A stretch of 64,000 nt of DNA from Minisyncoccota bacterium (lineage in GTDB: Bacteria; Patescibacteriota; Minisyncoccia; Phycocordibacterales; UBA9973), in NCBI GenBank assembly GCA_041663185.1, contig JBAZQY010000002.1:152496-216495 (forward strand). The letters are read 5' to 3'. The notes under the pieces are model-generated. The model was not told the origin of the DNA. It was given only the letters and a program-made list of their open reading frames with translations, and searched no databases. The position numbers were made by a program, and so were the translations under genes. Of this stretch, positions 841-64,000 are shown in pieces (the stretch's first letter is position 1; the number at the start of each line of letters is the position of its first letter).

Positions 841-1419
841 ATGGAGAAAAAACACATAATAACGATTGCTGGTAAGCTTGGAAGCGGAAAATCTTCAACT
901 TCTAAAAGAGTGGCTAATCTTTTAAATTATGAGAGAGTCTCTACTGGTGAGTTTATGCGATTGATGGCTGACAAAAAAGGAATCGCATTAGATGAATTAA
1001 GTAAAATAGCCGAAGCGGATATTTCCATAGATAAGCAATTAGATGATTATAATTTAGAAATAGGAAAAAAAGAAAATATTATTTTAGATTCTCGGCTTGG
1101 TTTTTATTTCATTCCTAATTCTTTTAAAGTATTTCTTGAGCTTGATCCTAATGTTGCCTCAGAAAGAATTCTAGAAGATAAAAAAACAAATCCTAATCGA
1201 CACACAGAGGCGACTGGAGTTTTTGATACAAAAGAAAGTATAATTGAAAGCATAAATAATCGTCTATCAAGCGAGAGAAGAAGATATAAACAGTTATATG
1301 GAATTAATGATTTAACGGCGCATGAAAATTTTGATTTGGTTATTGATACCTCTAAGATGCCGTTAGAAGAAGTCTCTCAGAAAATTATAGAAGAATATAA
1401 TAATTGGTTAAACAAATAA
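841..1419 (+). CDS. cytidylate kinase-like P-loop nucleotide kinase
   Basis: N-terminal Walker A motif (IAGKLGSGKSST), about 190 aa, with the overall shape of a (d)CMP kinase-like family. The assignment is from motif memory only. Confidence 0.55.
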   Translation: MEKKHIITIAGKLGSGKSSTSKRVANLLNYERVSTGEFMRLMADKKGIALDELSKIAEADISIDKQLDDYNLEIGKKENIILDSRLGFYFIPNSFKVFLELDPNVASERILEDKKTNPNRHTEATGVFDTKESIIESINNRLSSERRRYKQLYGINDLTAHENFDLVIDTSKMPLEEVSQKIIEEYNNWLNK

Positions 1420-1424
1420 ATAAG

Positions 1425-2822
1425 ATGAAAATACTAAGCGAATTATTAGAAGATATAAAAGTAATTGAAAGCCATGGAAATCTTGATGCTCGAGTGTCTT
1501 CTGTTTCGCTTAATTCAAAAACTATTGAACCGAGGTCATTGTTTGTCGCATTAGTTGGAAATGTCGTTGACGGACATATATTTATTGATGAAGTGGTTGA
1601 AAAAGGAGCTACTGTGGTAATTTATGAAAATGATCCCAAGGAGTTTAAGAGTGGCGTGACTTATTTGAAAGTGACTGATACTCATAGTGTTGTAGGAATA
1701 ATCGCTGATAATTTTTACGGGAATCCGTCTCGCAAGTTGAAATTAGTTGGAGTGACTGGCACAAACGGTAAGACTACAACAGTGACATTACTCCATCAAC
1801 TTTTTCGTAATTTAGGATATAAGGTAGGAATGATTGGGACAGTTGTTAATAAAATAAATGATAAATTTTATGAAGCTACTAGAACAACTCCGGACCCAGT
1901 TAGTTTGAATAAATTACTGGCCGAAATGGTAGATGAAGGTTGTGAATATTGTTTTATGGAAGTCTCATCTCATTCTGTCTGCGAAAAGAGAATTTCTGGA
2001 CTTTCTTTTGTTGGGGGTATATTTACAAATCTTACGCTTGATCATTTGGACTATCATAAAACAATAGATAATTATTGTAATGCCAAAAAAAGTTTTTTTG
2101 ATATTTTACCTGCGACAGGTTTTGCAATTGCAAATATTGATGACGAGAAAGGGGAGTATATACTAAGTACTACAAAAGCCCATAAATATACAATGAGTTT
2201 GAAACAAGAGGCAGATTTTAATGAACGACTTGAGACAAAACTAATCGGCGAATTTAATATGTATAATGTTTTAGGTGTATATGCTGTGGCTGTTTTACTC
2301 GGACAGGATAGGGAAAAAGTTAAAGAATTAATAAGGGAACTAGATGGAGCTCCAGGGAGATTCCAGGCAATTAAAAGCAAAAATAATATTACCGGAATTG
2401 TTGACTATGCTCATTCACCAGATGCCTTAGAGAATGTTTTGAAAACAATAAACCAAATGAAAGGAGATGGACGAGTTATTTCTGTTGTTGGGTGTGGCGG
2501 AGATCGAGATAAAAGTAAACGTCCAATTATGGCAAAGATTGGCTATGAAATGAGCGACATTCTTATCCTTACATCTGATAATCCAAGAAGTGAAAAACCT
2601 GAAGATATTTTAAGTGAAATGCAGAAGGGAATTCCGCTTGATGGTATAGATAAAGTTGAGATTATTATTGATCGGCGGATAGCAATTCAAAAGGCCTGTG
2701 AACTTGCCAAAGAAGGGGATTATATTTTAGTGGCCGGTAAGGGCCATGAAAATTATCAAGAAGTAAACGGAGTCAAAACCCATTTTGATGATATGGAAGA
2801 ATTAAAAAAATATTTGGAATAA
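1425..2822 (+). CDS. murE: UDP-N-acetylmuramoyl-L-alanyl-D-glutamate--2,6-diaminopimelate (or L-Lys) ligase MurE
   Basis: Mur ligase motifs GVTGTNGKTTT and DYAHSPDALENVL are present. The track ORF begins at a TTG at 1404, and the ATG at 1425 (MKILSELLED) is the more likely start. Confidence 0.9.
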   Translation: MKILSELLEDIKVIESHGNLDARVSSVSLNSKTIEPRSLFVALVGNVVDGHIFIDEVVEKGATVVIYENDPKEFKSGVTYLKVTDTHSVVGIIADNFYGNPSRKLKLVGVTGTNGKTTTVTLLHQLFRNLGYKVGMIGTVVNKINDKFYEATRTTPDPVSLNKLLAEMVDEGCEYCFMEVSSHSVCEKRISGLSFVGGIFTNLTLDHLDYHKTIDNYCNAKKSFFDILPATGFAIANIDDEKGEYILSTTKAHKYTMSLKQEADFNERLETKLIGEFNMYNVLGVYAVAVLLGQDREKVKELIRELDGAPGRFQAIKSKNNITGIVDYAHSPDALENVLKTINQMKGDGRVISVVGCGGDRDKSKRPIMAKIGYEMSDILILTSDNPRSEKPEDILSEMQKGIPLDGIDKVEIIIDRRIAIQKACELAKEGDYILVAGKGHENYQEVNGVKTHFDDMEELKKYLE

Positions 2823-2867: not shown

Positions 2868-4538
2868 ATGGAAACAGAAAAAAGAATTTGTAAAAAATGC
2901 CAGCAGGAATTCATTTTAGACCAAGATGATTTTTCATTTTACGAAAAAATGAAAGTACCTGTACCTGAAATTTGTCCGGATTGCAGATTTAAAATGCGAG
3001 CAATGTGGAGGAATGAAACCACTTTATATTCAGGGCAGAAATGTGGTTTGTGTAATGATAGTATTATAACTGTCTATAATAGTAAGAATAATTTTAAGGT
3101 TTTTTGTTATAAATGTTTTTTATCTGACTCATGGGATGCGAAGGATTATGCAAAAAATTATAATAAGGAGGAATCTTTTTTGGGTCAATTTCATGATCTT
3201 TTTAGGAAAGTTCCAAAGAAAAATTTATCAATAGATTTATCAAGTGGTCCTATTATAAATACTTCATATGCGAATGGGGCAGGAGGTATGAAAAACTGCT
3301 ATATGGTTTTTAATGGTGGAGGCGGAGAGGATATGATGTATTGTCGTGGGATAATGAAAGCCAAAGAAATTAGTGATTGTTATTTTGGTGAAAACATAGA
3401 GTTATCGTATGAATGCATTCACATAAATAAGTCGACAGGTATTACTTTTGGAGATAGTATTGTCGGATGTGTTGATTGTATGTTTTTAAAAAATTGTAGT
3501 GGCCTTACTAATTGCTTTGGGTGTGTAAATTTAAGAAATAAAAGTCATTGTTGGTTTAATGAACAGCTCACTCGTGATGAATACACGGATAGGCTAAAAG
3601 AAATAAATGGAAGTTATTCTAAAATAGAAGAAATGAAAAAAAAGTTTTGTGATTTTTGTTTGTCGTTCTCTAATCGAGAAAATCATAATATAAAAGCTAT
3701 TGATTGTACGGGGGATTATTTATTTGATAGTAAGAATCTAAAAGAATCGTTTGAAGTAACTGAATCAGAAAATTGTAGATATCTTTGTTATACAAAAAAA
3801 ACAAACGATTCATTAGGGGTAATGGGTTTTGGAATAAAATCGGAACAATTGTTAGAAGTTGTATCTACTGGATATTCTAGTAACATAATATCTTCAAATG
3901 GTATCGATGGTTCTCAAAATATTATGTATTCAAATTCATTACATAACTGTCATGATTGTATTGGTTGTGATGGTCTTAAAAATGCTGAGTACTGTATTTT
4001 AAATAAACAATATAGTAAAGAAGAATATGAAAAGTTTAAAGAACACATAGTTAAAGAACTCACAGAATTGGGTATTCATGGGTTAATGATGCCTCCAGAA
4101 ATTGCTCCATTTGCTTATAATGAGACAATTGCTCAGGATAATATGCCTTTGACTAAAGAGGAAGCTATCGCAGAGGGGTTCAGATGGGAAGATGATATTC
4201 AGATGACGAAAGGGAAGGAAACATTGCAACAAGAAGCAATTCATGATCATATAAATGAAGTCAAAGATGAAATTACAAAAGAAATATTAAGGTGTATAAA
4301 TTGTGAACGGAATTATAAGATTACAGAACAAGAATTATTGTTTTACCGAAAAATGAAATTACCAATTCCAAGAAAATGCTTCTTTTGCCGCCATCAGGAT
4401 CGTATAAAAAGAAGAGGTCCGTATAAATTCTGGGATAGAAAATGTGACCATTGTGGAAAAGATATCAAAACCAATTACTCACCAAATAGTCCAGAGATTA
4501 TTTACTGTGAGGATTGTTATAAGCAGGAAGTAATATAA
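2868..4538 (+). CDS. large Cys-rich protein with N- and C-terminal zinc-ribbon-like CxxC pairs and internal Cys-repeat units; function unknown
   Basis: The 556-aa ORF carries many CxxC pairs. Similar terminal modules occur at both ends: CKKCQQEF..FYEKMKVPVPEICPDCR and CINCERNY..FYRKMKLPIPRKCFFCR..CDHCGKD..CEDC. Internal repeats such as NCFGCVNLRNKSHCWFNEQ and DCIGCDGLKNAEYCILNKQ are also present. It sits between murE and murD. Confidence 0.7.
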   Translation: METEKRICKKCQQEFILDQDDFSFYEKMKVPVPEICPDCRFKMRAMWRNETTLYSGQKCGLCNDSIITVYNSKNNFKVFCYKCFLSDSWDAKDYAKNYNKEESFLGQFHDLFRKVPKKNLSIDLSSGPIINTSYANGAGGMKNCYMVFNGGGGEDMMYCRGIMKAKEISDCYFGENIELSYECIHINKSTGITFGDSIVGCVDCMFLKNCSGLTNCFGCVNLRNKSHCWFNEQLTRDEYTDRLKEINGSYSKIEEMKKKFCDFCLSFSNRENHNIKAIDCTGDYLFDSKNLKESFEVTESENCRYLCYTKKTNDSLGVMGFGIKSEQLLEVVSTGYSSNIISSNGIDGSQNIMYSNSLHNCHDCIGCDGLKNAEYCILNKQYSKEEYEKFKEHIVKELTELGIHGLMMPPEIAPFAYNETIAQDNMPLTKEEAIAEGFRWEDDIQMTKGKETLQQEAIHDHINEVKDEITKEILRCINCERNYKITEQELLFYRKMKLPIPRKCFFCRHQDRIKRRGPYKFWDRKCDHCGKDIKTNYSPNSPEIIYCEDCYKQEVI

Positions 4539-4540: not shown

Positions 4541-5911
4541 ATGCAAAATTACAAACAACAATTTAAGGATAAGAAAATTACAATTATGGGATTGGGTATT
4601 TTGGGGAGAGGGGTGGGATATACAAAATTCTTGGCTGAATGTGGGGCTGATTTGATTGTGACAGATTTGAAAACGAAAGAACAACTTGCAACTTCAATAC
4701 AAGCATTAAAAAAGTTTAAAAATATTAAATTTGTTTTAGGTGAGCATCGGTTGGAAGATTTTATAAACAGAGATATGGTGATTAAAGCGGCAGGTGTTCC
4801 CATAGATTCTATTTACATAAAAGAGGCCAAGAAAAATAAAATCCCAGTTGAGATGGACGTGTCTCTTTTTGCTAAGTGTGCTCCTGGTGTAATGATAATC
4901 GGAGTGACGGGGACAAGAGGCAAATCAATGACGACAACTTTGATTTATCAAATATTGAGACAGAATATAAAAGACAACAATGTCTATGTGGGTGGTAATC
5001 TTCGTGGAGTTGCGACCTTACCACTTCTTAAAAAAGTAAAAGCGAGGGATATTTTAGTTTGTGAACTTGATTCATGGCAATTGCAGGGTTTCGGAGAAGC
5101 AAAGATTTCCCCACACATTTCAGTATTTACGACATTCATGCCTGATCATATGAATTATTATAAGAATTCGATGAAAGATTATTTTAATGATAAGGCAAAT
5201 ATTTTTAAGTATCAGAAAAAAAATGACGTACTAATTATTCGTCCAGGGATGAAGAAGTTTATAAATAAAAAAGAAGTTAAGGGTAAACTTGTAGTTATAA
5301 ATTCAGAAAAAGTAAAAAATTGGAAGTTCAATGTTCCAGGTATTCATCATCGAGAGAATTTAGCTTGTGCTGTGGCTGTGGCAAAGCAACTTGGTATTTC
5401 AGAGGTAAAGATTAAAAAATCAATTACGGATTTTAAAGATTTAGAAGGGCGGCTGCAACTTTTGCGAACGTATAAAGGAATAAAAATATATAATGACAAT
5501 AATGCGACAACCCCAGAAGCAACAATTGCTGGGATTGAAGCATTAGTTGACCAGCCCCGAACCCGGTTCAGGGCTAGCCCTGAACCGGGTTCGGGGCAAA
5601 GAAGAATAATTTTAATCTGTGGAGGTTCAGACAAGGGTCTTCCTCTTGATAATTTTGTTAAAACTGTAAATAAATATTGCAAAGCAGTAATTTTTCTTGA
5701 GGGGAGTGGTACAGAAAAATTACTGAGTAGTAAGCAGAAAGTAGTAGGTATTAAGGTAAAAACAATCAAAGAAGCGGTACAAGAAGCAATTAAACAAGCC
5801 AATAAAGGAGATATAATTTTGTTTTCTCCAGCGTTTGCATCGTTTGGAATGTTTAATAATGAATATGAACGTAACGATTTGTTTATGAAGATTATTAGAA
5901 GTTTAAAATAA
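4541..5911 (+). CDS. murD: UDP-N-acetylmuramoylalanine--D-glutamate ligase MurD
   Basis: N-terminal Rossmann motif (ITIMGLGILGRGVG) and Mur ligase P-loop (GVTGTRGKSMTTT) are present, with adjacent mur genes as context. Confidence 0.9.
   Translation: MQNYKQQFKDKKITIMGLGILGRGVGYTKFLAECGADLIVTDLKTKEQLATSIQALKKFKNIKFVLGEHRLEDFINRDMVIKAAGVPIDSIYIKEAKKNKIPVEMDVSLFAKCAPGVMIIGVTGTRGKSMTTTLIYQILRQNIKDNNVYVGGNLRGVATLPLLKKVKARDILVCELDSWQLQGFGEAKISPHISVFTTFMPDHMNYYKNSMKDYFNDKANIFKYQKKNDVLIIRPGMKKFINKKEVKGKLVVINSEKVKNWKFNVPGIHHRENLACAVAVAKQLGISEVKIKKSITDFKDLEGRLQLLRTYKGIKIYNDNNATTPEATIAGIEALVDQPRTRFRASPEPGSGQRRIILICGGSDKGLPLDNFVKTVNKYCKAVIFLEGSGTEKLLSSKQKVVGIKVKTIKEAVQEAIKQANKGDIILFSPAFASFGMFNNEYERNDLFMKIIRSLK
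5555..5596. repeat. 42-bp perfect GC-rich palindrome (ccccgaacccggttcaggg-ctag-ccctgaaccgggttcgggg) embedded in-frame in murD
   Basis: Both 19-nt arms and the 4-nt centre were verified. The local GC is far above the window background. It encodes PRTRFRASPEPGSG, which looks like an extra loop placed before the conserved IILICGGSDKG segment. Confidence 0.6.
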
Positions 5912-8095: not shown

Positions 8096-9469
8096 ATGGA
8101 TTTAGATTTATCCCTTGGCCGTAGTCATACGAACGAGGCAAAAATTAAAAATGTTCACTTTATTGGTATTGGTGGAATCGGTATTTCAGCGGTGGCGCGG
8201 ATGATGCTAGAGGAGGGGAAGAATGTTACCGGGCAGGATATGCAGGATGGGGAAATTGTTAATGAGCTTCGTTTACTCGGTATAGATATCAAAATTAGAC
8301 AATCATATGAAAATATTCCGAAAGATACAGATCTTGTAGTCTATACAATTGCTATCGAATATTATGACCCAGAATTATTTAAAAAACTGAAAGAAAGGAA
8401 TGATATAGCAATCAAATCTTATCCCGAAATGCTTGGGGTGATAAGTAAGGATAAATATACAATTGCAATTTGTGGAACTCATGGGAAGACTACAACAACA
8501 GGAATGATCTCACAAATTTTGATTGACGGTGGGAAAGACCCGATGGTGATTGTTGGAAGTTTATTAAAAGGTAAAACTAATTTTATTGCGGGTAAAAGTG
8601 ATTTGTTTGTAGTTGAGGCTTGTGAGTACCGAAGATCATTTTTGAATATTAATCCAAACGTTTTAGTTATTACAAATATTGATGAAGACCATTTGGATTA
8701 TTATAAAGATATAGAAGATATTAAAAATGCCTTCCATGAGATGGTGATGAAAGTACCAGAGGATGGATATGTAATTTGCAACCCAGATGATGAAAATATT
8801 TCGGATGTTATTAAGGGGATAAAGGCAAAAGTAATAAATTGGCAAGATTATTTTGATGCAGGTTTGAAATTAAAAATTCCTGGGATACATAATAAGAAAG
8901 ATGCCGCGGCGGCCATGGCCGCCGCGGCTACTCTTGGTATTTCTCAATCCTCTGCAAGGGGAGTCCTTGCAGAATTTCCGGGGACATGGAAACGTTTTGA
9001 ATTCAGGGGAAAACTTTCTAATGGAATACTTCTTTATGACGATTATGCTCATCATCCGACAGAAATTATGGCTACACTCGAAGGTTTTCGGGAATTGTAT
9101 CCAAAAACTGACGGCTGGAAAATCACAGTTATTTTCCAGCCACACCTATTTTCACGCACCAAATTACTTCTAGATGACTTTGCGAAAAGTTTTTCTGATG
9201 CTGATGAAGTTCTTGTTTTACCAATTTACTATGCTCGGGAAGTTGATGATGGAACAATAAGTTCAGAAATTTTAGCGGGGGAGATAAACAAACACACCAA
9301 CAATGCAAAATCTTTTTCAGATTTTAATGAAGCAGAAAAATCTCTGGAAGTCGGACCTGCCTCGCCAACGAGTCAAGGCGGGCTTCCAGAAATGGGTGAT
9401 AAAAATATTATTGTGACAATGGGGGCAGGAGAAGCTTCAAAAATTGGAGATTTCCTATTAAAAAAATAA
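8096..9469 (+). CDS. murC: UDP-N-acetylmuramate--L-alanine ligase MurC
   Basis: The sequence reads IGIGGIGISAVARMML, GTHGKTTTTGMI and DYAHHPTEI. The track ORF start at 7868 overlaps the divergent gene and contains only non-coding-looking sequence. The ATG at 8096 (MDLDLSLGRS) is preferred. Confidence 0.9.
   Translation: MDLDLSLGRSHTNEAKIKNVHFIGIGGIGISAVARMMLEEGKNVTGQDMQDGEIVNELRLLGIDIKIRQSYENIPKDTDLVVYTIAIEYYDPELFKKLKERNDIAIKSYPEMLGVISKDKYTIAICGTHGKTTTTGMISQILIDGGKDPMVIVGSLLKGKTNFIAGKSDLFVVEACEYRRSFLNINPNVLVITNIDEDHLDYYKDIEDIKNAFHEMVMKVPEDGYVICNPDDENISDVIKGIKAKVINWQDYFDAGLKLKIPGIHNKKDAAAAMAAAATLGISQSSARGVLAEFPGTWKRFEFRGKLSNGILLYDDYAHHPTEIMATLEGFRELYPKTDGWKITVIFQPHLFSRTKLLLDDFAKSFSDADEVLVLPIYYAREVDDGTISSEILAGEINKHTNNAKSFSDFNEAEKSLEVGPASPTSQGGLPEMGDKNIIVTMGAGEASKIGDFLLKK
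8903..8928. repeat. 26-bp perfect GC-rich palindrome (gccgcggcggccatggccgccgcggc) inside murC
   Basis: Verified self-complementary. It encodes the AAAAMAAAA stretch of the conserved Ala-rich MurC segment using only GC-rich Ala codons in a low-GC genome, and it contains NcoI-like and SacII-like cores. Confidence 0.5.
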
Positions 9470-10615: not shown

Positions 10616-12313
10616 ATGTCTTTTCACATTAATCACAGAAGAATAAAAAGAGATATTGACCCAGATGAAATTTTTCTGGATTCTAAAAATTTACCTGATT
10701 TCAACAAACAACAATTTGAAGGTAGATTAGAAAAGGCAATACCCAAACATTCAGTGCTACTGGTAGGAGCTTTTTTCTTGGTAGTTGTTTTTATTTTTGT
10801 GGGACAAGTTATAAATCTTCAAATAATAAAAGGCGAGGCATATTTTAAAAAAAGTGAAAATAATACATTGATGGAAAGACCGATTTTCGCAGACAGGGGA
10901 CTTATCTATGACCGTAATCAAGTTCTTCTTTCTTGGAATACTTGGGCAAAAGAAGATATAAATAAATTATCTTCACCAGAAAGATCTTATTATGATGCTT
11001 CCGGATTTGGATTACTTCTTGGTTATGTTAGTGCGCCAGCCAAAGACTCCTCTGGGTATTATTGGCAAGATAATTTTATCGGGAAAGATGGTGTTGAAAA
11101 ATTTTTTAATGATAATTTAACTGGGGTTAATGGAGTTCGTATTACTGAGACTGATGTGAGTGGAGTTATTCAATCAGAAAATATGATTCAATCTCCCAAG
11201 GCCGGTGAAAATCTTACATTATCGATTGATTCAAGAATTCAAAAGAAAATGTATGAATCAATGTCGTCGATGGCCAGGAATGTAAATTTTCAAGGAGGAG
11301 CCGGTGTCATGATGGATATAAAAACAGGGGAGTTACTCGCTCTGACAAGCTATCCAGAATATAATGGGAATATTTTATCTCTCGGTAAAGACAGTAAAAC
11401 GATAAGCGGATATTTTGCTGACAAACGGAAAGTTTTTTTGAATCGAGCAGTCTCAGGACTTTATAGTCCGGGGTCAACCGTCAAACCATTTCTTGGTTAT
11501 GGTGCCTTGATTGAAAATGTTATTAGTCCTCTTAAATTAATTTTTTCTAATGGGTCAATTTCAATTCCAAATCCATATTTCCCTGACAAAAAATCTGTCT
11601 TTAAAGATCATGGAACATTTGGTTATGTGGATATGAGGAAAGCGATTGCCGTTTCGTCTGACGTATATTTTTATCAAATCGGTGGAGGATTTGAAAGCCA
11701 AAAAGGTTTAGGTATTTTAAATATAGATAAATATATAAGATTGTTTGGTATTGGAGAGAAAACTGGGGTAAATCTGGGTGGAGAAAAGGATGGAACAATT
11801 CCGACACCAGAATGGAAAGCTAAAACTTTCAAGGGTGAACCATGGCGAGTGGGAGATACGTACAATACCGCTATTGGTCAGTATGGTTTCCAAGTCACAC
11901 CGGTTCAAATGGCTCGAGCAGTAGCAGGTATTGCCAATATGGGAACGATTTATACTCCACACATCACACTTGCTGATAAAAATTTTGAATCACCGCAAAT
12001 GACAATACCAGTTGACCCTGATAAAATGAAAGTTATACACGAAGGAATGCGAATGGCGGTGACGGAAGGGACTTGTATGGCCCTAAATATTCCGAGCGTT
12101 AAGGTCGCGGCTAAATCTGGAACTGCTCAAGTTGGGCTAGGTAACACAAATACTAACTCGTGGATAATTGGCTTCTTCCCGTATGAAAATCCGAGATATG
12201 CATTTGCCCTTGTCATGGAGCGTGGACCCAAAGAGGCCTCCGGAAATGCGACGAGGGTAATGAGTGAAGTCATTGATTACATGAGCGTCTATACTCCAGA
12301 ATACTTTCAATAA
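10616..12313 (+). CDS. penicillin-binding protein 2-like class B transpeptidase
   Basis: N-terminal TM anchor, SxxK (GSTVKPF), SxN-like (SSD) and KSG/KTG (AKSGTAQ) motifs. Confidence 0.85.
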   Translation: MSFHINHRRIKRDIDPDEIFLDSKNLPDFNKQQFEGRLEKAIPKHSVLLVGAFFLVVVFIFVGQVINLQIIKGEAYFKKSENNTLMERPIFADRGLIYDRNQVLLSWNTWAKEDINKLSSPERSYYDASGFGLLLGYVSAPAKDSSGYYWQDNFIGKDGVEKFFNDNLTGVNGVRITETDVSGVIQSENMIQSPKAGENLTLSIDSRIQKKMYESMSSMARNVNFQGGAGVMMDIKTGELLALTSYPEYNGNILSLGKDSKTISGYFADKRKVFLNRAVSGLYSPGSTVKPFLGYGALIENVISPLKLIFSNGSISIPNPYFPDKKSVFKDHGTFGYVDMRKAIAVSSDVYFYQIGGGFESQKGLGILNIDKYIRLFGIGEKTGVNLGGEKDGTIPTPEWKAKTFKGEPWRVGDTYNTAIGQYGFQVTPVQMARAVAGIANMGTIYTPHITLADKNFESPQMTIPVDPDKMKVIHEGMRMAVTEGTCMALNIPSVKVAAKSGTAQVGLGNTNTNSWIIGFFPYENPRYAFALVMERGPKEASGNATRVMSEVIDYMSVYTPEYFQ

Positions 12314-12332
12314 AATACCCCTTAGATATTTA

Positions 12333-12380
12333 CCCCATAGGCAAGGCCTATGGGGTAGGCCTAGGGGGTATTTGTTTTTA
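12333..12380 (+). terminator. rho-independent terminator downstream of the PBP gene
   Basis: ccccatagg-caagg-cctatgggg hairpin, then a T-run. Confidence 0.6.
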
Positions 12381-16286: not shown

Positions 16287-16610
16287 ATGACAAAAGCAAA
16301 AGCAATCACAAAAGATATCACAGAAAATATTAAAACACAAAAAATGTTACTTCGAGTGTTGATTTGTAGTTCAATCGTTTTGTGCGCTGTCTATATTTAT
16401 CTTATTGGTTCTATAACTTTCAATATTATTGCCCGCAAATCATTAGAAAATACAGCAACTAACCTAGCCAATAGTGTGAATCAACTTGAATTGACCTATT
16501 TGAATAATGTGAAGGGAATAGATAAAGAATATGCTTTTTCAAAAGGATTTGTAGATGTTCATCAAAATATTTTTGCAACAAGAGATATTAATCATGTCGC
16601 TATTCGCTAA
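16287..16610 (+). CDS. FtsL-like small bitopic division protein
   Basis: 107 aa with a single TM helix and then a coiled coil, in the conserved position between rsmH and ftsI. Confidence 0.5.
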   Translation: MTKAKAITKDITENIKTQKMLLRVLICSSIVLCAVYIYLIGSITFNIIARKSLENTATNLANSVNQLELTYLNNVKGIDKEYAFSKGFVDVHQNIFATRDINHVAIR

Positions 16611-18316
16611 TGAAATTATCATCGTTCCAAAAGAGAATAAGGGTTTTGATTGGTTTTGTTCTTTTAGTGTCTATCATTCTCTTGGGTAGACTTTTTTTTG
16701 TTCAGGTTATTCATAAAAACTTTTATATTTTGCGTGCCGATAAGCAATATGTCACTCCGGCGGGTAATATATTTGATCGTGGTTCAATATATTTTTCTAA
16801 AAAAGATGGTTCACTTGTGACTGCTGGGACAGTAACTTCAGGATTTAAGCTGACAATGGTTCCAAAGAATATTGTTAATGCTTCGGATGTTTATACACAA
16901 TTAAGTCCATATTTACAAATGGATGAAGATACTTTTTTAACAAAAGTTTCCAAAATTGATGATCCATACGAAGAAATTGCAACAGGTTTAAATAAAGAAC
17001 AAGTTACAGAAATTGAAAATCTCAAAATTAAAGGGCTTTCTATTTTTAAAGATAATTGGCGATTTTACCCTGGAGGAAATCTTGCTTCGCATACGCTTGG
17101 TTTCTTAGCTTATAAAAATGATTCTCTGGTTGGTCAGTATGGATTAGAACGTTTTTATAATAGTACACTTTCTAATAGAGAAGATGAAGACTATGTGAAT
17201 TTTTTTGCTGAAGTTTTTTCAAATATTAGAGATACAATTTCAGATACAAATAGAGGTGATGTTATTACAACGATTGAACCGTCCACGCAATCTACCCTAG
17301 AAGGTGAGCTTGCGTCAGCTTTAGAGAAATGGAAAGCTGATCAAGCCGGTGGAATAATTATTAATCCACAAACTGGAGAGATATATGCTATGGCAGGATT
17401 ACCAGATTTTGATTTAAATAATTTTAGAAAAGTAGAGGATGTCGGCGTTTATCGTAATCCTTTAGTTGAAAATGTTTTTGAATTTGGGTCAGTTATTAAA
17501 CCATTGGTGATGATGGGGGCGATTGACGCGGGAGTTGTTACTCCAGAGACAACTTATTTTGATAATGGATTTATCGTTGTAGATAAAAAGACAATAAATA
17601 ACTTTGATAAAAAAGGGCGTGGACTTGTGACGATGCAAGATGTCCTTAATCAATCCTTAAACACTGGGATGGTTTTTGTTGAAAGTAAACTCGGGCATGA
17701 CAAATTTCGCGCTTATTTAAAATCGTATGGAATTGGAGAAAAAACGGGGATTGATCTTCCCAATGAAACTTCTGGTCTTATAAAAAATATTGATAGTCCT
17801 CGAAATATTGAATATGCCAATGCCGCTTTTGGTCAAGGGATAGCCTTGACTCCGATTGAAGCAGCCAGAGCGTTTGCGATTATTGCTAATGGGGGCAAAC
17901 TCGTGACACCACACCTAGTTAAAGAAATAAAATATGACAATGGACTTTCCAAAAATCTTGATTATCCTTTCATTAAAGAAAATATAATAAAAAAAGAATC
18001 ATCTGATACTGTGACTAGAATGCTCATTAAAGTTTTTGAATCTTATGATAACGGAGTGCATAAATTTAATAATCACAGCGTTGCCACAAAAACAGGTACG
18101 GCACAAGTAGCAAAGGAAGACGGGAAGGGGTATTATACAGATCGTCATATGCACTCATTTTTTGGATATTTTCCAGCTTATGAACCCAAATTTTTAGTTT
18201 TTCTTTTTCTTAAAAATCCTAAAGAAGTCAAATATGCTTCCCAAACATTAATTCCACCTTTTATTAATATCACTAAATTTATTATAAATTATTATAATGT
18301 TCCACCCGATAGATAG
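16610..18316 (+). CDS. ftsI: peptidoglycan D,D-transpeptidase FtsI-like (class B PBP)
   Basis: TM anchor plus SxxK (SVIKPL), SxN (SLNTGM) and KTG (KTGTAQ) motifs. The TAATG overlap with the upstream gene suggests translational coupling. Confidence 0.85.
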   Translation: MKLSSFQKRIRVLIGFVLLVSIILLGRLFFVQVIHKNFYILRADKQYVTPAGNIFDRGSIYFSKKDGSLVTAGTVTSGFKLTMVPKNIVNASDVYTQLSPYLQMDEDTFLTKVSKIDDPYEEIATGLNKEQVTEIENLKIKGLSIFKDNWRFYPGGNLASHTLGFLAYKNDSLVGQYGLERFYNSTLSNREDEDYVNFFAEVFSNIRDTISDTNRGDVITTIEPSTQSTLEGELASALEKWKADQAGGIIINPQTGEIYAMAGLPDFDLNNFRKVEDVGVYRNPLVENVFEFGSVIKPLVMMGAIDAGVVTPETTYFDNGFIVVDKKTINNFDKKGRGLVTMQDVLNQSLNTGMVFVESKLGHDKFRAYLKSYGIGEKTGIDLPNETSGLIKNIDSPRNIEYANAAFGQGIALTPIEAARAFAIIANGGKLVTPHLVKEIKYDNGLSKNLDYPFIKENIIKKESSDTVTRMLIKVFESYDNGVHKFNNHSVATKTGTAQVAKEDGKGYYTDRHMHSFFGYFPAYEPKFLVFLFLKNPKEVKYASQTLIPPFINITKFIINYYNVPPDR

Positions 18317-28545: not shown

Positions 28546-28617
28546 ATTCAGGGGGTTTGGTGAGGAATGCGGGGGCGACCCTGTATTGTATTATATGGCA
28601 ATTTGGAATATTACGCA

Positions 28618-28860
28618 ATGGAATATTATAATAATCTTATGCCTAGAGCAATATATACAAAAGACCATAATGAAATTGTTAAGCGCTTAGTAAAAGCACG
28701 ACTAGAGTCTGGACTAGGACAAGTTGAAGTTGCTAAAAAATTAGGGAAAACTCAATCATATCTTTCTAAAATAGAATCCGGACAAAGAAGATTTGATGTT
28801 TTGCAATTAAAAGAATTTGCAAAACTTTATAAAAAACCATTAGACTATTTTGTTAAATAA
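28618..28860 (+). CDS. restriction-modification controller (C) protein, XRE-family HTH
   Basis: About 80 aa from the in-frame ATG at 28618 (MEYYNNLMPRAIY...). HTH_XRE pattern: GLGQVEVAKKLGKTQSYLSKIESGQR. Its 3' end overlaps the next gene, as in C-R operons. The track start at 28567 is an alternative. Confidence 0.7.
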   Translation: MEYYNNLMPRAIYTKDHNEIVKRLVKARLESGLGQVEVAKKLGKTQSYLSKIESGQRRFDVLQLKEFAKLYKKPLDYFVK

Positions 28861-28864
28861 ATAT

Positions 28865-29428
28865 ATGAAAAAAAATAAAATTACTGTAACGATTAATAAG
28901 AAACAAATCAAGCTTGATATCTTAAAAATAGAAAGCTCTGATAAAGCTAAATTACGAACAATATTTAAGCGTTGGTTGGAACTTAGTAATTTACTTAAAA
29001 GTCTTGGTTCAAGAGGGGTAAATATACCAGAAGGACTTACAGAAAGTTTATTTTGCTTGGAAATGAATTCTGCTAGGGTTATTAAAGCATATAATTCAAA
29101 AGGTTCATTTGATACAATCAACAGGAATAATAATAAAAGACAACAGGTAAAGGCAACAAGTAGTAGTGGTCCTACTTCATTTGGACCAAATTCTTTTTGG
29201 GATGAAAATGAGTTATATTTAATGGATTTTGTTGGAAAGGATGGAATAATAGATGGAACTTTTAGTATTTATAGAATTCTTGATAAATATATTTATCTCT
29301 CTAAGGTAAATAAAACTGAAAGATTATCAGATCAACAGGCCCAAAAAAGAAGACCCAGGATGGATTTAAGGAAAGATGTTGTAATAAAATACAAATTAAA
29401 ACCAATTAAAAAAGGTTCTATCGTTTAG
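28865..29428 (+). CDS. candidate type II restriction endonuclease (small, basic, no recognisable fold)
   Basis: 187 aa directly after and overlapping the C gene, and convergent with the methyltransferase. The assignment is positional inference only. Confidence 0.35.
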   Translation: MKKNKITVTINKKQIKLDILKIESSDKAKLRTIFKRWLELSNLLKSLGSRGVNIPEGLTESLFCLEMNSARVIKAYNSKGSFDTINRNNNKRQQVKATSSSGPTSFGPNSFWDENELYLMDFVGKDGIIDGTFSIYRILDKYIYLSKVNKTERLSDQQAQKRRPRMDLRKDVVIKYKLKPIKKGSIV

Positions 29429-31006
29429 TTACTCCATTGCTTTCATCATCTGTTTAGCCACAGCTTCTACTACTGGAACACTCACAGAGTTTCCAAATTG
29501 TTTATACAATGCAGAATCTGCTAAAGGAGGTAATTTAAAACTATTTGGAAATCCTTGTATTCTTGAACACTCAAGGGGTGTTAATTTTCTTATTCCTTTC
29601 TTATCTTTAATTATCGGAACATTGTGTCCACCCATTCCCATGTTAGCTGTAAGTGTAGGGCAAACTCCACTTTTATTCTCTCTGACATATTGTCTTCTCC
29701 ATTGATATACTTTTCCTTCTTCTTTTACATCTTTTTTTAGTTTTTCAAAAAGAGGCTTTCCGTTGTAATAGTATTTCTCAGAAACATTTTTCTCTAATAA
29801 ATCAGTAATTTTTACATTAAGTTTAATAGGCTCAGGAAATGTAAATTTATCTGAATACTCTTTATTTTTAAACCCAACGATATATATACGTTCACGATTT
29901 TGAGGGACATTACCATATTCCATTGTATTTAATACTTTTGCTTTAACATGATATCCTAAATCTTTTAGAGTTTCTTCAATTATTCTAAATGTGTTGCCTT
30001 CGTCATGGCTTTTTAGATTTTTTACATTTTCAAGTAAAAATCCTTCTGGATTTTTTGCTTTAATAATTTTGGCTATATCAAAGAATAAATTACCTCTATT
30101 TTTTGGATCATCAAATCCTTTACGATATCCTGCAATAGAAAAAGCCTGACAAGGGAAACCTCCTAATATAAAATCAAATTCTGGTAAATCATTAATCCCT
30201 ATTTTTCTTATATCTTCAACTATCAATTTTGAATCTTTAAAATTAAGATCATATGTTTGCTTACAGGGTGCATCAAAATCATTTGCAAAAACTGTTTTAA
30301 ATCCTGCATTTTCAAATCCCATTCTTATGCCACCTATTCCAGCAAATAGATCTATTGTTTTAAATCCGTGTTTTGTTTTCTTTTGAGGTTTTACTTCCTG
30401 TTCTATTTTTGGATTACTTATAATCTGAACAACTACACCACGAACTTCAACTTCTTTTCTGTAAAAAGGAAGCATTGATTGATTCCTAGGTTCTAGTCTA
30501 AATCTATTTTTATCTCGATATAGTTTTTTTAATGTTGCTTCATTGTCGTCAATAATAGCAACTACGGTTTGTCCGTTTTCAGCCACTGATTGCTTTTTTA
30601 TTATTACAATATCCCCATTAAATATTCCTTCTTCTATCATACTGTCTCCTTGGACTCTTAGTGCATAATAATCTTTAGGACTTTTAATATTTGAGTTAAT
30701 TATTGAAATGGCATCTTGTTTATCTTCAATCGCTTCTATTGGATAACCTGCTGCGATAGTTCCCATAACTGGTATTTCAATGATTTGAAAATTTTCTTTA
30801 TTAGTTTCTATACTTCTTGATAAATTATCAGACTTTGAAATGTAGCCTTTTTCTTTTAAAGCGTTTACATGTTCATGTACAGTAGAAATTGCTTTTAATT
30901 TAAATTTCTTTCGTATCTCGTCATTAGTAGGAGATATACCATTTTCATTGATATATGAGTTAATAAAATCCAGTATTAATTTTTGTTTTTTTGTTAGTGT
31001 TTGCAT
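29429..31006 (-). CDS. LexA repressor (HTH + S24 peptidase) fused to a DNA (cytosine-5)-methyltransferase
   Basis: N-terminus: MQTLTKKQKLILDFI..ISPTNDEIRKKF..ISTVHEHVNALKEKGYI (LexA DNA-binding domain), Ala-Gly site (IAAGYP), S24 catalytic Ser (VQGDSM) and Lys (EATLKKLYR). C-terminus: m5C-MTase motifs I (DLFAGIGGIRMGF), IV (GGFPCQAFS), VI (ENVKNL), VIII (QNRERIYIVG), IX (RKLTPLECSRIQGFP) and X (QFGNSV). The track ORF extends 21 codons upstream to 31069. The ATG at 31004-31006 matches the canonical LexA start. Confidence 0.85.
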   Translation of the reverse strand: MQTLTKKQKLILDFINSYINENGISPTNDEIRKKFKLKAISTVHEHVNALKEKGYISKSDNLSRSIETNKENFQIIEIPVMGTIAAGYPIEAIEDKQDAISIINSNIKSPKDYYALRVQGDSMIEEGIFNGDIVIIKKQSVAENGQTVVAIIDDNEATLKKLYRDKNRFRLEPRNQSMLPFYRKEVEVRGVVVQIISNPKIEQEVKPQKKTKHGFKTIDLFAGIGGIRMGFENAGFKTVFANDFDAPCKQTYDLNFKDSKLIVEDIRKIGINDLPEFDFILGGFPCQAFSIAGYRKGFDDPKNRGNLFFDIAKIIKAKNPEGFLLENVKNLKSHDEGNTFRIIEETLKDLGYHVKAKVLNTMEYGNVPQNRERIYIVGFKNKEYSDKFTFPEPIKLNVKITDLLEKNVSEKYYYNGKPLFEKLKKDVKEEGKVYQWRRQYVRENKSGVCPTLTANMGMGGHNVPIIKDKKGIRKLTPLECSRIQGFPNSFKLPPLADSALYKQFGNSVSVPVVEAVAKQMMKAME

Positions 31007-31137
31007 ATTGCTAAATAATATATGTTTTGCTACAATTCTATTATAACCGAATATATACCGAAAGTGCAAGCAGTTACCTATAGATATTATAAATAACTGT
31101 TACAAGTCGAAATTTATTAAAAAATAAAACGATTTTT

Positions 31138-32040
31138 ATGTCATCAATTATTCAAGATTTACAAATTGAAGCTACAGATCAAAGTAACTCATGCTCAGAT
31201 TTATTAAGAAAAGCGAAGATTGTTGCTGTTAAACTCGATTTAGAAGAGTTTGCAGAGTGGATAGAAAAAGAATTAAATGGATACAAAGGTTTCTCAAATA
31301 AAGACCTCCCAGATTATAGAATAGTAAGTGGAGAACCAAAAGCTTGGAATCCATATCATGGCTGGCAACCTATTTTGTTTGGTGATACAGAGGCTGGAGA
31401 TATCATGGCAAAAAGAGGCGTAATGCAACCCATCGGTGAACTTGATGATCTTGCAAAAACAGATTCAAGTACTTTCATGATTGATTACAATACTTCTGCC
31501 AAAAAACAAATAATGGAGGCTATTGGCTTTGAAACAGATATAAAATTTATGATAGGTAGAACTGCCGTTACTGGGATCTTGGATGGTGTACGAAATTTAA
31601 TACTTGATTGGGCTTTAAGATTAGAAAAGGCAGGTGTAGCAGGAGAAGGTATTTCTTTTTCTAAAGAAGATAAAGAGAGAGCAAAAATAACTGGTGATAT
31701 CTATAATGTAGGTCATATCGAAAATTTTGCTGGTACATTAGGAAATGTGTCTGATGATGTTACTCTTAATGTTCATCAAATTAATACGAAATCAATAGAA
31801 GAAATAAAAAAATTAACTGATCAAATTAATAAATATACCCCAGATATTGACTTACCAATAGAAAGAAAAAGTGAAGTTAATGATATAGTTACAGAATTAA
31901 AGAATGAGCTTTCTAAAAAATCACCGGAACAATCCAATATAAAATTGGCATTAAGGTCGTTAAAAACTATTTTTGAAGCTGTAGCAGGAAATGTTATTGC
32001 ACAAGGTATTATTGTTGAGATTAGTAAGTATATTCACTAA
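31138..32040 (+). CDS. AbiTii-like abortive infection protein
   Basis: The N-terminal pattern IIQDLQIEATD..CSDLLRKAKIVAVKLDLEEFAEWIEKELNGY resembles the AbiTii family signature. This is recalled from memory rather than searched. Confidence 0.55.
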   Translation: MSSIIQDLQIEATDQSNSCSDLLRKAKIVAVKLDLEEFAEWIEKELNGYKGFSNKDLPDYRIVSGEPKAWNPYHGWQPILFGDTEAGDIMAKRGVMQPIGELDDLAKTDSSTFMIDYNTSAKKQIMEAIGFETDIKFMIGRTAVTGILDGVRNLILDWALRLEKAGVAGEGISFSKEDKERAKITGDIYNVGHIENFAGTLGNVSDDVTLNVHQINTKSIEEIKKLTDQINKYTPDIDLPIERKSEVNDIVTELKNELSKKSPEQSNIKLALRSLKTIFEAVAGNVIAQGIIVEISKYIH

Positions 32041-39720: not shown

Positions 39721-39928
39721 TTTGGTTTTCCACAAGAGTGGGGTAGTGTCAAGAAGCCTATTTATAGCTATATTTTTAAGATAGAAGGACGTCGCACAAT
39801 ATATCTTTGCGACACTCTTGTTTTTTAAAACAATCCTTATTATTATTAGGGTTATTATGATGCCTCAATTTTTCATTGATTGTGCGACATCAAAAGTCGA
39901 TATTATAAATAAAATAATTTAAAAATAT

Positions 39929-40180
39929 ATGAAATTTGAAGAAAATGTAAAATTATTGACTGCCCTATCGAATCCATATGACATGTCTGCTACCGGTGGA
40001 CCTGTTGGTGTTTCTCATAAGGTTCGTTTGAATATCAATGGTGAGATTTTTGTTGCTAATGCGACAGAAGATCAGGTTAAGGAATATTCAAAGTTTGAGG
40101 GTAAGGACGGTGTTGCTGTTTTGAATTTTACTTCTCCAAAGGAGAAGTTACGTTTGAGTTTGGTTTCGTTTTCTGTGTAG
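39929..40180 (+). CDS. prophage small protein (83 aa), possible ssDNA-binding gV analogue
   Basis: First ORF after the left repeat. The size and beta-rich composition fit gV, but there is no motif support. Confidence 0.35.
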   Translation: MKFEENVKLLTALSNPYDMSATGGPVGVSHKVRLNINGEIFVANATEDQVKEYSKFEGKDGVAVLNFTSPKEKLRLSLVSFSV

Positions 40181-40255
40181 TGTTTTAAACTTGCTGACCC
40201 TTTTGGAATTATTCGTATTTTATTTGTCCTTTAGGGTCGGCATGTTTAGAAAATT

Positions 40256-40870: not shown

Positions 40871-41001
40871 GTGATGAGTATTCAACAATTTATATTTTAG
40901 TTACTTCTTATCTTCCTCGGATTTTATTTTTAATATTTTTTCCTGCTGTTTTGGTCGGTGTAGCGTTTAACTTTATGAAAAATCCTTTGCGTAATATATG
41001 A
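40867..41001 (+). CDS. prophage small hydrophobic protein (44 aa), g7/g9-like candidate
   Basis: Hand-translated: MSDEYSTIYILVTSYLPRILFLIFFPAVLVGVAFNFMKNPLRNI. ATGA overlap with the next small ORF. Confidence 0.25.
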   Translation: MSDEYSTIYILVTSYLPRILFLIFFPAVLVGVAFNFMKNPLRNI

Positions 41002-41105
41002 GTTTATCTGAATTACAACAATTATCGATAGAAGTTATTGCTACTGCTTTGGTGTGTGGATTTTTGTTTGCTCTTTTCATAGCCCTTTTTGGTCATGAAA
41101 AGTAG
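40998..41105 (+). CDS. prophage small hydrophobic protein (35 aa), g7/g9-like candidate
   Basis: Hand-translated: MSLSELQQLSIEVIATALVCGFLFALFIALFGHEK. Confidence 0.25.
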   Translation: MSLSELQQLSIEVIATALVCGFLFALFIALFGHEK

Positions 41106-41553: not shown

Positions 41554-41557
41554 AATA

Positions 41558-56691: not shown

Positions 56692-57426
56692 TCATTTTTT
56701 GTTTAAATAATACTTTCTTTTAGTTTCCGGTAACCGTTCAATAGTATATCGGAGCATAGTCCGAGGCATTTTAGTTGTATAAATATCTAGAAATGCAATT
56801 AACTCTTTTTCGGATACCCTCTTCCCAATTTCTCGAAGCATCCAGCCGACAGCTTTATGAATGAGGTCGTGCTTATCTTTTAAAAGTATTTTTGCAATTC
56901 TAAAAGTCCACTCCGATTCTCCTTTATAGATAAATGCAAATGTAGAAACAATTGCAATCCGACGCTCCCAAATATTTTTTGAATTTGCAAGTTTAGTGAG
57001 GATTGTTTTTTTAAATGTATCACTTTGGTCGTATAAATAATTTCCAATAATGTATCCTGCAGATAGATCAACTAAATCCCAGTTATTAATATACTTAGTG
57101 TGTTTCAAATAAAAATTAAATATTTTTTTATGACTCTCCGCTAGGACTTTCCTAGCGGAGAGGGGGGAAGATTTATATTTATGAACTAAGATTAATAAGG
57201 CGATGAGGCGAACTTCGTGGTATTTGTTTTTAATAAGTTTTGAAATATCAGGAAGTGGAATATCACCATATTTTACTGCAATTTTTCGGGCTTCGGGAAC
57301 AGTAATTCCCAAAAACAAATCCCCTTCTCCATACTGACCTTTGCCAGTCTTGAAAAACCAAGACAAGTTTTTAGCTTTCTCGTAATTTTTATGTGACATT
57401 ATTTCTTTCATAATTTTGTTATACAT
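56692..57426 (-). CDS. DNA alkylation repair protein (AlkD/AlkC-like HEAT-repeat glycosylase family)
   Basis: The N-terminus reads NYEKAKNLSWFFKTGKGQYGEGDLFLGITVPEARKIA..WDLVD, an AlkD-like pattern. Confidence 0.7.
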   Translation of the reverse strand: MYNKIMKEIMSHKNYEKAKNLSWFFKTGKGQYGEGDLFLGITVPEARKIAVKYGDIPLPDISKLIKNKYHEVRLIALLILVHKYKSSPLSARKVLAESHKKIFNFYLKHTKYINNWDLVDLSAGYIIGNYLYDQSDTFKKTILTKLANSKNIWERRIAIVSTFAFIYKGESEWTFRIAKILLKDKHDLIHKAVGWMLREIGKRVSEKELIAFLDIYTTKMPRTMLRYTIERLPETKRKYYLNKK

Positions 57427-63899: not shown

Positions 63900-64000
63900 C
63901 TACGTCACAGCTTGAACATGTTTTTCTGCGTGTTCATGCTCCCCGCCTTGACTCGGCGAGGCAGGTTCGTGTTCATCGTGATCTTGTGAAGCAATTGTGA
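63900..64000 (-). CDS. 3' end of an upstream ORF running off the window (possibly atpB with a His/Glu-rich C-terminal tail)
   Basis: Minus-strand frame reads ...TIASQDHDEHEPASPSQGGEHEHAEKHVQAVT* with a stop at 63900-63902. It sits where atpB is expected upstream of atpE, and a-subunits end in ...EEH-like motifs. It is locally GC-rich. Weak. Confidence 0.3.
   Translation of the reverse strand, partial: TIASQDHDEHEPASPSQGGEHEHAEKHVQAVT

Follow-up and report, generated by a model that had tools for sequence, protein, structure and literature searches.

A perfect 44-bp palindrome lies in frame within murD, the gene for UDP-N-acetylmuramoyl-L-alanine--D-glutamate ligase, in a 64-kb stretch of DNA from a Minisyncoccota bacterium (contig JBAZQY010000002.1, positions 152,496 to 216,495); this whole stretch is referred to below as the window. 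With a probability of roughly 0.72, the palindrome is a non-autonomous selfish miniature palindromic element, namely an inverted doublet that resembles a REPIN (a hairpin-forming doublet of repetitive extragenic palindromic, REP, units) and belongs to a dispersed superfamily colonising Nomurabacteria/Paceibacteria. The observations that carry this reading are that the palindrome is an insertion, that its arms are copies of a unit present elsewhere, that the same site is reoccupied by various hairpin families, that elements of the superfamily are nested within one another and that the reading frame is always kept. An earlier note on this sequence had already suggested a miniature palindromic element inserted in frame, and the alignments, the dispersed arm copies and the predicted fold described here support that suggestion; the doublet nature of the arms and the further elements in the window had been overlooked.

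The two arms of the palindrome, of 22 nt each (5554-5575 and 5576-5597), are 100% complementary with a spacer of 0 nt. The core at 5555-5596, ccccgaacccggttcaggg-ctag-ccctgaaccgggttcgggg, matches exactly the perfect inverted repeat that the earlier note had described, and the complementarity extends by one further base on each side. The GC content of the palindrome was measured at 72.7% in a genome of approximately 33% GC, close to the contrast of about 70% against 33% given previously; the 2-kb segments of the window range from 28 to 42% GC and lie mainly at 32-36%. As had been claimed, the palindrome falls wholly within the murD open reading frame (ORF), whose product is 100% identical to the UDP-N-acetylmuramoyl-L-alanine--D-glutamate ligase of a Candidatus Paceibacterota metagenome-assembled genome (MAG) and aligns over its full length with solved MurD structures. 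The insert comprises P339-G352, with codons read PRTRFRASPEPGSG; it is adjacent to the conserved IILICGGSDKG block, although not immediately before it as first described, since the three residues QRR stand between. Folded as RNA, the segment forms a hairpin of more than 20 bp with a free energy of -46.8 kcal/mol, compared with -20.0 +/- 3.2 kcal/mol for shuffled sequences (z = -8.5). A chance origin of the palindrome is excluded, because no match to the 19-nt arm is expected in shuffled sequence and because of this z score.

Relatives were compared in a sample of 80 Nomurabacteria loci (designated L with a number), in which genes were called, crudely, as stop-to-stop ORFs; the sample holds 78 murD genes, and insert states were counted on the 58 murD genes from genome contigs. 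Among 40 MurD proteins of 72-79% identity, length variation clusters at few sites, the largest of which is the palindrome site, between GIEAL and IILICGG. The short form, GIEALKxxKKNIILICGG, is present in 20 of the 58 related genes, and the other 38 carry 2-22 extra residues at this position; MurD lengths in the clade range from 441 to 494 aa. The solved MurD structure of Streptococcus agalactiae (3LK7) has a 13-residue gap precisely across VDQPRTRFRASPE. An alignment-based AlphaFold model of the window MurD (mean predicted local distance difference test score, pLDDT, of 83) places the insert after helix 325-336 and before strand 356-360, where the C-terminal domain begins, and residues 341-352 are the sole segment of the model with a pLDDT below 50 and have no secondary structure. 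Because the site is empty in a third of the relatives, is a gap in 3LK7 and is a disordered loop in the model, the palindrome is, on alignment and modelling grounds, a 14-aa lineage-specific insertion in a loop that appears permissive, and the extra loop relative to canonical MurD proposed by the earlier note is thereby confirmed at the exact position. Orthologues have either no insert at this site or another GC-rich hairpin, and among relatives the peptide sequence of the insert varies while the hairpin symmetry is conserved.

Each arm of the palindrome is itself a hairpin, GCCCC-GAACC-C-GGTTC-A-GGGC, with a single C.A mismatch, and the architecture of the 44-mer is this unit, the dinucleotide TA and the reverse complement of the unit. 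Public metagenome contigs were scanned for the 19-nt arm and gave 15 matches. Eleven of these lay in contigs of 57-70% GC, without hairpin context, and were set aside as chance; the other four lay in contigs of 29-34% GC from the candidate phyla radiation (CPR) and represent three distinct loci, namely the murD of L083, the dapF of L089/L095 and the sequence after the stop codon of a gene in L087. A scan of viral contigs gave no match to the arm. The single unit encodes SPEPGSG in both the L083 murD and the L089 dapF. Identity of the L083 unit over 19 of 19 nt is not simple inheritance, because the two murD genes are only about 70% identical at the DNA level. The closest orthologous copy is that of L096 (73.6% DNA identity over murD), a doublet of the same length and in the same place with four arm mismatches; 31 of 42 positions are identical to the window doublet, which is near the gene-wide divergence. 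The unit CCCCGAACCCGGTTCAGGG(G) is thus dispersed in the manner of a REP, occurring in murD (window, L083 and, decayed, L096), in dapF and in the intergenic sequence of L087. Because the arm is a hairpin that recurs singly at these other loci, the 44-mer is, as judged from sequence, an inverted doublet of a dispersed hairpin unit.

The murD site itself is occupied in different species by differing GC-rich hairpins of 17-53 nt; 13 of these are palindromes of considerable length, their stems measuring 15-26 bp. Two elements stand in tandem in some species, and eroded remnants are left in others (L040, L067 and L044). Such copies evidently decay over time, because the L096 doublet has its arm mismatches and these remnants exist. 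Three more 44-mers at the identical murD position (L031, L001 and L096) share the outline GCC...GGCTAGCC...GGC, and their arms resemble three different single-hairpin families. Across the four positionally homologous 44-mers, 94% of cells are paired and both sides have changed at 14 of 22 pairs. A rough, approximate neighbour-joining tree built from MurD shows the state of the site as scattered, and sister taxa often differ (a doublet in L005 vs. an empty site in L009, L002 vs. L034, and L012/L017 vs. L025/L032); therefore, the site has undergone repeated gain, loss or replacement.

This pattern extends beyond a single site. Inserts that are lineage-specific and at least 4 aa long number 85 over the 78 murD genes and fall at no fewer than 12 MurD positions; their GC content is 51% against 34% for the core, and every one of these genes is a single intact ORF in which all inserts are multiples of three and free of stop codons. 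The related low-GC loci, 1.41 Mb in all, yielded 62 perfect GC-rich hairpins whose stems are at least 9 bp long, compared with 0-2 in dinucleotide shuffles, and 15 had stems of at least 15 bp, compared with none in shuffles; this corresponds to approximately one perfect hairpin every 23 kb, in addition to numerous imperfect hairpins. Long ORFs contain 112 of 154 GC-rich hairpins. Within the window, in-frame copies are found in murD, in murC, in an atpB-like gene and in a DNA-alkylation-repair gene of the AlkD-like type.

Several families recur among these hairpins. Family F1 (CCTGCCTGCGCAGGCAGG) has 11 copies in at least seven genes, including four positions in MurD, and is always read LPAQAG; the 18-nt element is exactly a 6-codon insertion with no visible duplication of the flank. 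Family F3 (GGAAGTCGGACTTCC) has 18 copies that are read in all three phases (GSRTSR, RKSDF and EVGLP), and families F2 and F4 recur in several genes as well as intergenically, F4 being found at the murD site of L026, L037 and L065 and, with 27 of 27 nt identical, in L087. Doublets also move as units, because doublets of the same families recur in murE and murD of different species: the L031 murE doublet is identical to the L028 murD doublet at 47 of 53 positions, and the L066 murE doublet to the L005 murD doublet at 42 of 47. A second doublet hot spot is located in the murE-like gene 5' of murD, after the motif K(Y/F)xYGF at approximately residue 190 of the Mur ligase; in the murE-like copy of the window (1404..2822) this position is empty.

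The window holds at least five further members of the hairpin superfamily (Table 1). At the C-terminus of murC, an F3 hairpin contains an element of family F6, and this is a nested insertion because the F3 hairpin is intact at the same murC codons in L017 and L026 and is split by F6 in the window; in L006 and L070, different inserts interrupt the hairpin at the matching point, GGAAG^TC. A second F6 copy, near the other end of the window, shares 25 identical bases and the reading frame with the murC copy, and the ORF that carries it, upstream of the gene for the ATP synthase c subunit, is probably atpB. The core of the intergenic hairpin, TAGGCAAGGCCTA, matches the F2 sequence that encodes SPRQGLG in murD of L006, L017 and L019. 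Target context shows only a loose tendency, F1 lying 5' of GGNGAYAT (Gly-Asp-Ile/Val), which could equally be a filter at the protein level. An insertion model based on duplication of CTAG or TA was dropped, since it yields no multiples of three, although CTAG recurs at the centres and borders of elements.

Table 1. Palindromic elements of the window, their host genes, and related elements and candidate transposase genes in other loci (window coordinates unless a locus is named)
Feature	Position	Strand	Basis or remark
Host gene murD, 456 aa, insert at residues 339-352	4541..5911	+	protein identity, structure alignment
murD palindrome, inverted doublet of a 21-nt GC-rich hairpin unit, TA joint, centre GCTAGC	5554..5597	.	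complementarity, GC, fold
Left unit, GCCCCGAACC-C-GGTTCAGGGC, hairpin with one C.A mismatch, read (Q)PRTRFRA	5554..5574	+	sequence
Right unit, exact reverse complement of the left unit, read SPEPGSG(Q)	5577..5597	+	sequence
26-bp perfect palindrome in murC, GCCGCGGCGGCCATGGCCGCCGCGGC, encodes AAAAMAAAA	8903..8928	+	orthologue comparison; not an insertion
F3 hairpin at the murC C-terminus, GGAAGTCGGA then CTTCC, read LEVG..LP	9346..9387	+	split by F6 element
Nested 27-nt F6 element in the murC F3 hairpin, CCTGCCTCGCCAACGAGTCAAGGCGGG, PASPTSQG	9356-9382	+
F2-like intergenic hairpin, TACCCCATAGGCAAGGCCTATGGGGTA, inside an outer CCCC..GGGG hairpin, T-run 3'	12331..12357	.	past the stop of gene 10616..12313
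F4 29-nt perfect hairpin, CTCTCCGCTAGGACTTTCCTAGCGGAGAG, read SARKVLAE, in the AlkD-like gene 56692..57426(-)	57134..57162	-
F6 24-nt copy, CCTGCCTCGCCGAGTCAAGGCGGG, encodes PASPSQGG near the ORF C-terminus	63942..63965	-	F6 match
Arm unit at the same murD site, single, read SPEPGSG	L083
Arm unit in dapF, in frame, TSPEPGSGE, 27-nt single hairpin CTTCCCCCGAACCCGGTTCAGGGGAAG	L089/L095			dapF holds a second, different hairpin
Arm unit directly 3' of a permease gene stop codon, 27-mer CTTCCCCCGAACCCGGTTCAGGGGAAG	L087
Doublets at the murE-like hot spot	L031 2353-2405; L066 335-381; L059 9237-9287; L023 9298-9342; L077 3519-3561
RAYT-like loci, two types	L023, L027, L028, L051, L054, L059, L067, L077 (e.g., L054 15911-16537, L027 537-1205)

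Candidate enzymes for the mobilisation of such hairpins were found in relatives. A probe resembling a REP-associated tyrosine transposase (RAYT), which served only as a search probe, matched ten ORFs, each 200-243 aa long, distributed over eight of the related loci. Four of the ten were tested against profiles, and all four matched Pfam Y1_Tnp (PF01797), three of them with scores exceeding the curated cut-off; in NCBIfam, the highest-scoring family for the four is the REP-associated tyrosine transposase, with 38-72 bits, below the equivalog cut-off of 80. Each RAYT-like gene is bracketed by inverted hairpins of the form ATGTCAAAG-N5-CTTTGACAT (GTCAAAG-N5-CTTTGAC) or GTCAAGG..CCTTGAC, and a gene bracketed by inverted REP hairpins is the classical REP-RAYT arrangement (PMC3116915, PMC3337134). 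The flanking hairpin is dispersed as well, and several times its copies, ATGTCAAAGACNGTCTTTGACAT, provide the apparent start and first seven codons (MSKTVFD) of the gene 3' of murD. The in-gene doublet at 9237 of L059 and the RAYT-flanking REP are identical over at least 11 consecutive nt (13 nt, CAAAGACGGTCTT, by eye). The presence of RAYT-like genes with flanking REP-like hairpins in relatives suggests mobilisation of the REP/REPIN type, and a weak link from these enzymes to the GC-rich in-gene hairpins is drawn from their co-occurrence in the clade and the one shared stretch. An approximate probe for the IS608 TnpA gave no matches by tblastn. Another HUH enzyme is encoded in the window, the rolling-circle Rep of an inovirus-like prophage, and nothing connects it with the hairpins.

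A mechanism consistent with these findings can be proposed for the selfish element. The elements would spread by way of an intermediate that is a hairpin of single-stranded DNA, on which a Y1/HUH enzyme would act. Because the genomes are approximately 90% coding, most surviving copies would be found inside genes, at places where a Pro/Gly/Ser/Arg-rich loop is tolerated, and persistence would be limited to copies of a length divisible by three that contain no stop codon in the host frame. Such copies would be transcribed and translated together with the host protein; in MurD, the product would be a disordered 14-residue surface loop connecting the last helix of the central domain to the first strand of the C-terminal domain, presumably harmless and without a role in catalysis. 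The perfect arm symmetry of the window doublet, compared with the drifted orthologue in L096, may mean that the whole doublet was copied frequently and recently or, alternatively, that one arm is corrected from the other by template switching during replication. A wider reading, which is tentative and somewhat less likely to hold than to fail, is that these elements, ultra-short GC-rich hairpins and doublets of 15-53 nt, form a class of their own, REPIN-like and translation-compatible, that has not been described before. RAYT-like Y1 transposases may move the members of this class by way of single-stranded DNA; the members may land preferentially in or beside existing hairpins, leading to hot spots and nested copies; their perfect palindromes may be kept by arm-to-arm conversion; and much of the loop insertion in essential proteins of these reduced genomes may stem from them, as the number of sites in MurD alone would indicate.

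Several results weigh against the interpretation as a mobile doublet. The F1, F2, F3 and F5 copies inspected showed neither a target-site duplication nor terminal inverted repeats separate from the hairpin itself. Within the 64-kb window, no second copy of the murD unit was found, and neither a RAYT-like gene nor a REP of the GTCAAAG type. The hairpins that flank the RAYT-like genes belong to a different family than the murD unit. Not every copy is a clean insertion, because the two elements in dapF correspond to gaps of merely 2-4 aa relative to the solved plant DapF. Translation of the insert is something that we infer from frame conservation, and mobility of the hairpins is likewise deduced from comparison of their sequences. 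Some palindromes of the lineage, both of them in murC, arose without a change in length. The murC F3 hairpin occupies codons that are found in all orthologues; among F3 copies, the AT-rich flanks co-vary so that the stem is extended, and the central base flips between G and C in orthologous copies. The 26-bp murC palindrome at 8903-8928 corresponds in most orthologues to a same-length, non-palindromic segment, AAAA(M/L)AVA, with GCA/GCT codons and stems of 3-5 bp, and it is palindromic to varying degrees, with compensated differences, in L033, L006, L025 and L017; it looks like the in-place palindromisation of a conserved Ala-rich segment with two amino acids changed. A palindrome-making process other than transposition is therefore also at work and could explain part of the pattern.

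A further hairpin, GTCAAGG-GATAG-CCTTGAC, with a 7-bp stem, was noted at 17831-17851 in an ftsI-like gene (16610..18316). It consists of synonymous codons of the conserved peptide FGQGIALTP, is non-palindromic in orthologues with the same peptide and resembles the REP type that flanks the RAYT-like genes in L054 and L059.

A rival reading is that the murD palindrome was itself made in place by template switching (quasi-palindrome conversion or snap-back synthesis), as an inverted duplication of a short GC-rich loop segment whose arms stay perfect because one corrects the other. Template switching has been proposed for other coding palindromes (PMC6649704), and the single unit of L083 at the same murD site makes an in-place step from monomer to doublet conceivable; the two murC palindromes formed without length change, the maintained pairing of the four 44-mers and the perfection of the window copy beside an L096 orthologue that has diverged at about the gene-wide rate point the same way. 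As the source of the element this explanation is nevertheless unlikely, since the unit is identical over 19-27 nt at unrelated loci, both in dapF and in intergenic sequence, since entire doublets recur in different genes, beyond the reach of local synthesis, and since the GC-rich arms are unlike their AT-rich flanks. Template switching probably contributes to the upkeep and doubling of the elements and cannot be their origin. A selected structure in mRNA or DNA, which might pause translation between domains, stabilise the mRNA, direct its processing or bind a protein, is quite unlikely. The hairpin is very stable and is positioned at a domain boundary, and most relatives hold some hairpin at the site, with compensatory changes that keep the pairing. 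However, the insert is missing in the 20 short-form relatives, the occupants elsewhere are scattered, come from unrelated families with widely differing lengths and are in some cases tandem or eroded, and members of the same families turn up intergenically as well as in numerous other genes, where all three frames are used. No terminator is predicted at 5554-5597, the sequence 3' of the palindrome being caaagaagaa without a T-run, and the palindrome has no match in Rfam, the only match in the window above gathering score being a tRNA-Glu. The programmed structured RNA that the earlier note had offered as an alternative is disfavoured by these same findings.

It is very unlikely that an adaptive, Pro/Gly/Ser/Arg-rich linker was selected at the protein level with the nucleotide symmetry being incidental. 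The insert peptides are alike in composition across species and lie at the surface, yet complementarity at 22 of 22 positions is too perfect to be incidental, the peptides PRTRFRA and SPEPGSG differ only because one unit is read in different phases, and it is the symmetry rather than the peptide that is conserved among relatives. Among the orthologues, none was seen in which the peptide is conserved through non-palindromic codons, an arrangement that the earlier note had named as evidence against an inserted palindrome. Uptake sequences of other bacteria also replace sequence at constant length and are read in one frame. The idea that the repeats resemble DNA uptake signals, accumulated by biased uptake and recombination in naturally competent CPR cells, draws on the short repeats that replace sequence at constant length and on the single frame of F1; it is highly improbable, since many unrelated families are present instead of a single motif for each species, every family consists of hairpins, numerous copies are plain insertions or nested ones, and the doublets travel as units. 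That the palindrome is an artefact of assembly or amplification, such as a chimeric fold-back, has next to no likelihood: the ORF is intact and in frame, the identical MurD protein is on record from two contigs and several sources, and in-frame palindromes at the same codon position are found in dozens of MAGs from unrelated studies with different contig-naming styles.

The interpretation as a selfish REPIN-like doublet can be compared with known systems. The CPR elements share with REPs and REPINs (Bertels & Rainey 2011; PMC3116915, PMC3337134; RAYT families in PMC5581495) a short imperfect palindromic unit of approximately 20 nt at dispersed loci, a replicating form in which two inverted units fold into one long hairpin, clustered and nested arrangements, and single Y1/HUH transposases encoded in related genomes between inverted REP-like hairpins. 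Long perfect palindromes have been reported as a by-product of REPIN activity (PMC3337134). In contrast, REPs are extragenic by definition, whereas the CPR elements are mostly intragenic, in frame and presumably translated; the spacer of the CPR doublets is 2-5 nt vs. tens of nucleotides in REPINs; the CPR elements are GC-rich islands in an AT-rich genome and the GTAG-type 5' motif was not seen in them. The RAYT-like proteins, scoring under the NCBIfam cut-off and flanked by hairpins of another family than the murD unit, likewise depart from the known RAYTs.

Rickettsia palindromic elements (RPEs) were reportedly described by Ogata et al. 2000. They are mentioned in PMC6649704 and PMC10969869, and the comparison that the earlier note drew to them and to hairpins of the REP type or of MITEs (miniature inverted-repeat transposable elements) is apt as an analogy. 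In both RPEs and the CPR elements, selfish palindromic repeats lie in frame in essential protein-coding genes that stay intact, persist at surface positions, outside the folded core, at which the protein can accommodate additional residues, and decay with time. The RPEs are set apart by length and host, being approximately 100-150 bp long and confined to Rickettsiales, whereas the CPR elements are GC-rich and 15-53 bp long; in CPR, additionally, many unrelated families coexist, copies are often perfect palindromes and a candidate transposase family is present. As for MITEs, the whole CPR element is a hairpin, with no distinct interior and no target-site duplication seen, and an intrinsic terminator would differ by the T-run that does not follow the murD palindrome. 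The murD element is thus RPE-like in behaviour and REP/REPIN-like in architecture and is a member of neither group, because it is far shorter than RPEs, occurs in another phylum, is intragenic and has, for a cognate RAYT, at most candidates in related genomes.

The GC clusters and byp elements of mitochondria are short GC-rich palindromic mobile elements in an AT-rich, gene-dense genome, some of them inside coding sequence, and in these respects the CPR elements are alike. The byps break the reading frame and are skipped by translational bypassing; the CPR copies, by contrast, keep the frame, are free of stop codons and have a bacterial host rather than an organelle. Read-through translation is therefore the simple reading, because every copy is in frame and stop-free, and bypass or splicing of the insert was rejected as the frame is kept in all 78 murD genes. 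GC clusters and byp elements of yeast mitochondria (Magnusiomyces capitatus) are cited in PMC6649704, which also describes perfect inverted repeats in functional genes of Nematomorpha mitochondria, where arm-to-arm conversion is suggested by the "binary" perfection of the repeats, template switching is proposed and coding palindromes are gained and lost between species. Both arms of the Nematomorpha repeats encode conserved protein regions and no dispersed family is involved, whereas the murD arms form an extra loop and belong to a dispersed unit; only the murC palindrome at 8903-8928 resembles that case. A description of in-frame palindromic repeats in CPR, Patescibacteria or Parcubacteria was not found in the full-text literature, in which few subscription journals were covered.

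If the selfish-element reading holds, even the most reduced and gene-dense bacterial genomes carry active selfish repeats that survive by being readable as protein, and the hairpin elements inflate and diversify CPR proteins. Unrecognised elements would then confound alignments, phylogenies, domain annotation and structure prediction in CPR. Together, the families, doublets, nesting, in-place palindromisation and RAYT-like genes could offer a compact natural system for studying the movement of REPs and REPINs and the maintenance of palindromes, and the presence or absence of single copies could mark strains in metagenomes.

Additional features were noted in the window. Directly 5' of murD, a 556-aa protein (2868-4538, + strand) is rich in CxxC pairs, has as its only Pfam match a sub-threshold treble-clef zinc finger at the C-terminus and is encoded in the place where the murE-like gene of L096 abuts murD. 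A 546-aa protein at 29429-31069 (- strand) is a fusion of a LexA DNA-binding domain, Peptidase_S24 and a C-5 cytosine DNA methylase, that is, a LexA-like autocleaving repressor joined to a restriction-modification methylase, which is unusual; beside it are genes for a Bsp6I-type restriction endonuclease, a small HTH_3 protein and an AbiTii protein (28567-28860, 28850-29428 and 31138-32040, all on the + strand). The region from approximately 39900 to 44710 is probably an integrated inovirus-like (filamentous) prophage, with genes for an ATPase like Zot or M13 protein I (43218-43925) and for a rolling-circle replication initiator (43973-44707, PF23343). Its AT skew is strongly negative, gene orientation converges there and the cumulative GC skew peaks at approximately 44-45 kb. 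The replication terminus is probably located in this region, and phages of this kind integrate there at dif. Immediately 5' of the largest ORF of the prophage are GC-rich hairpins (41558-41613).

An intergenic repeat of approximately 85 nt occurs twice in the window (48640-48710 and 59918-59990), upstream of atpD and of a dehydrogenase gene, and contains the hairpin CCTCGTCCTCCCTCCTCCGAGG with T-runs on both strands. It is also present in other species (L083 3956-3989; L087 1136-1181 and 2809-2871) and may be a bidirectional terminator, a regulatory cassette or another repeat family. Between the gene for the ATP synthase c subunit and the upstream gene, an inverted repeat at 63772-63849 has 24-nt AT-rich arms that lie 30 nt apart and are 96% complementary, and it is 90% conserved in the unrelated contig L087 (4851-4912).

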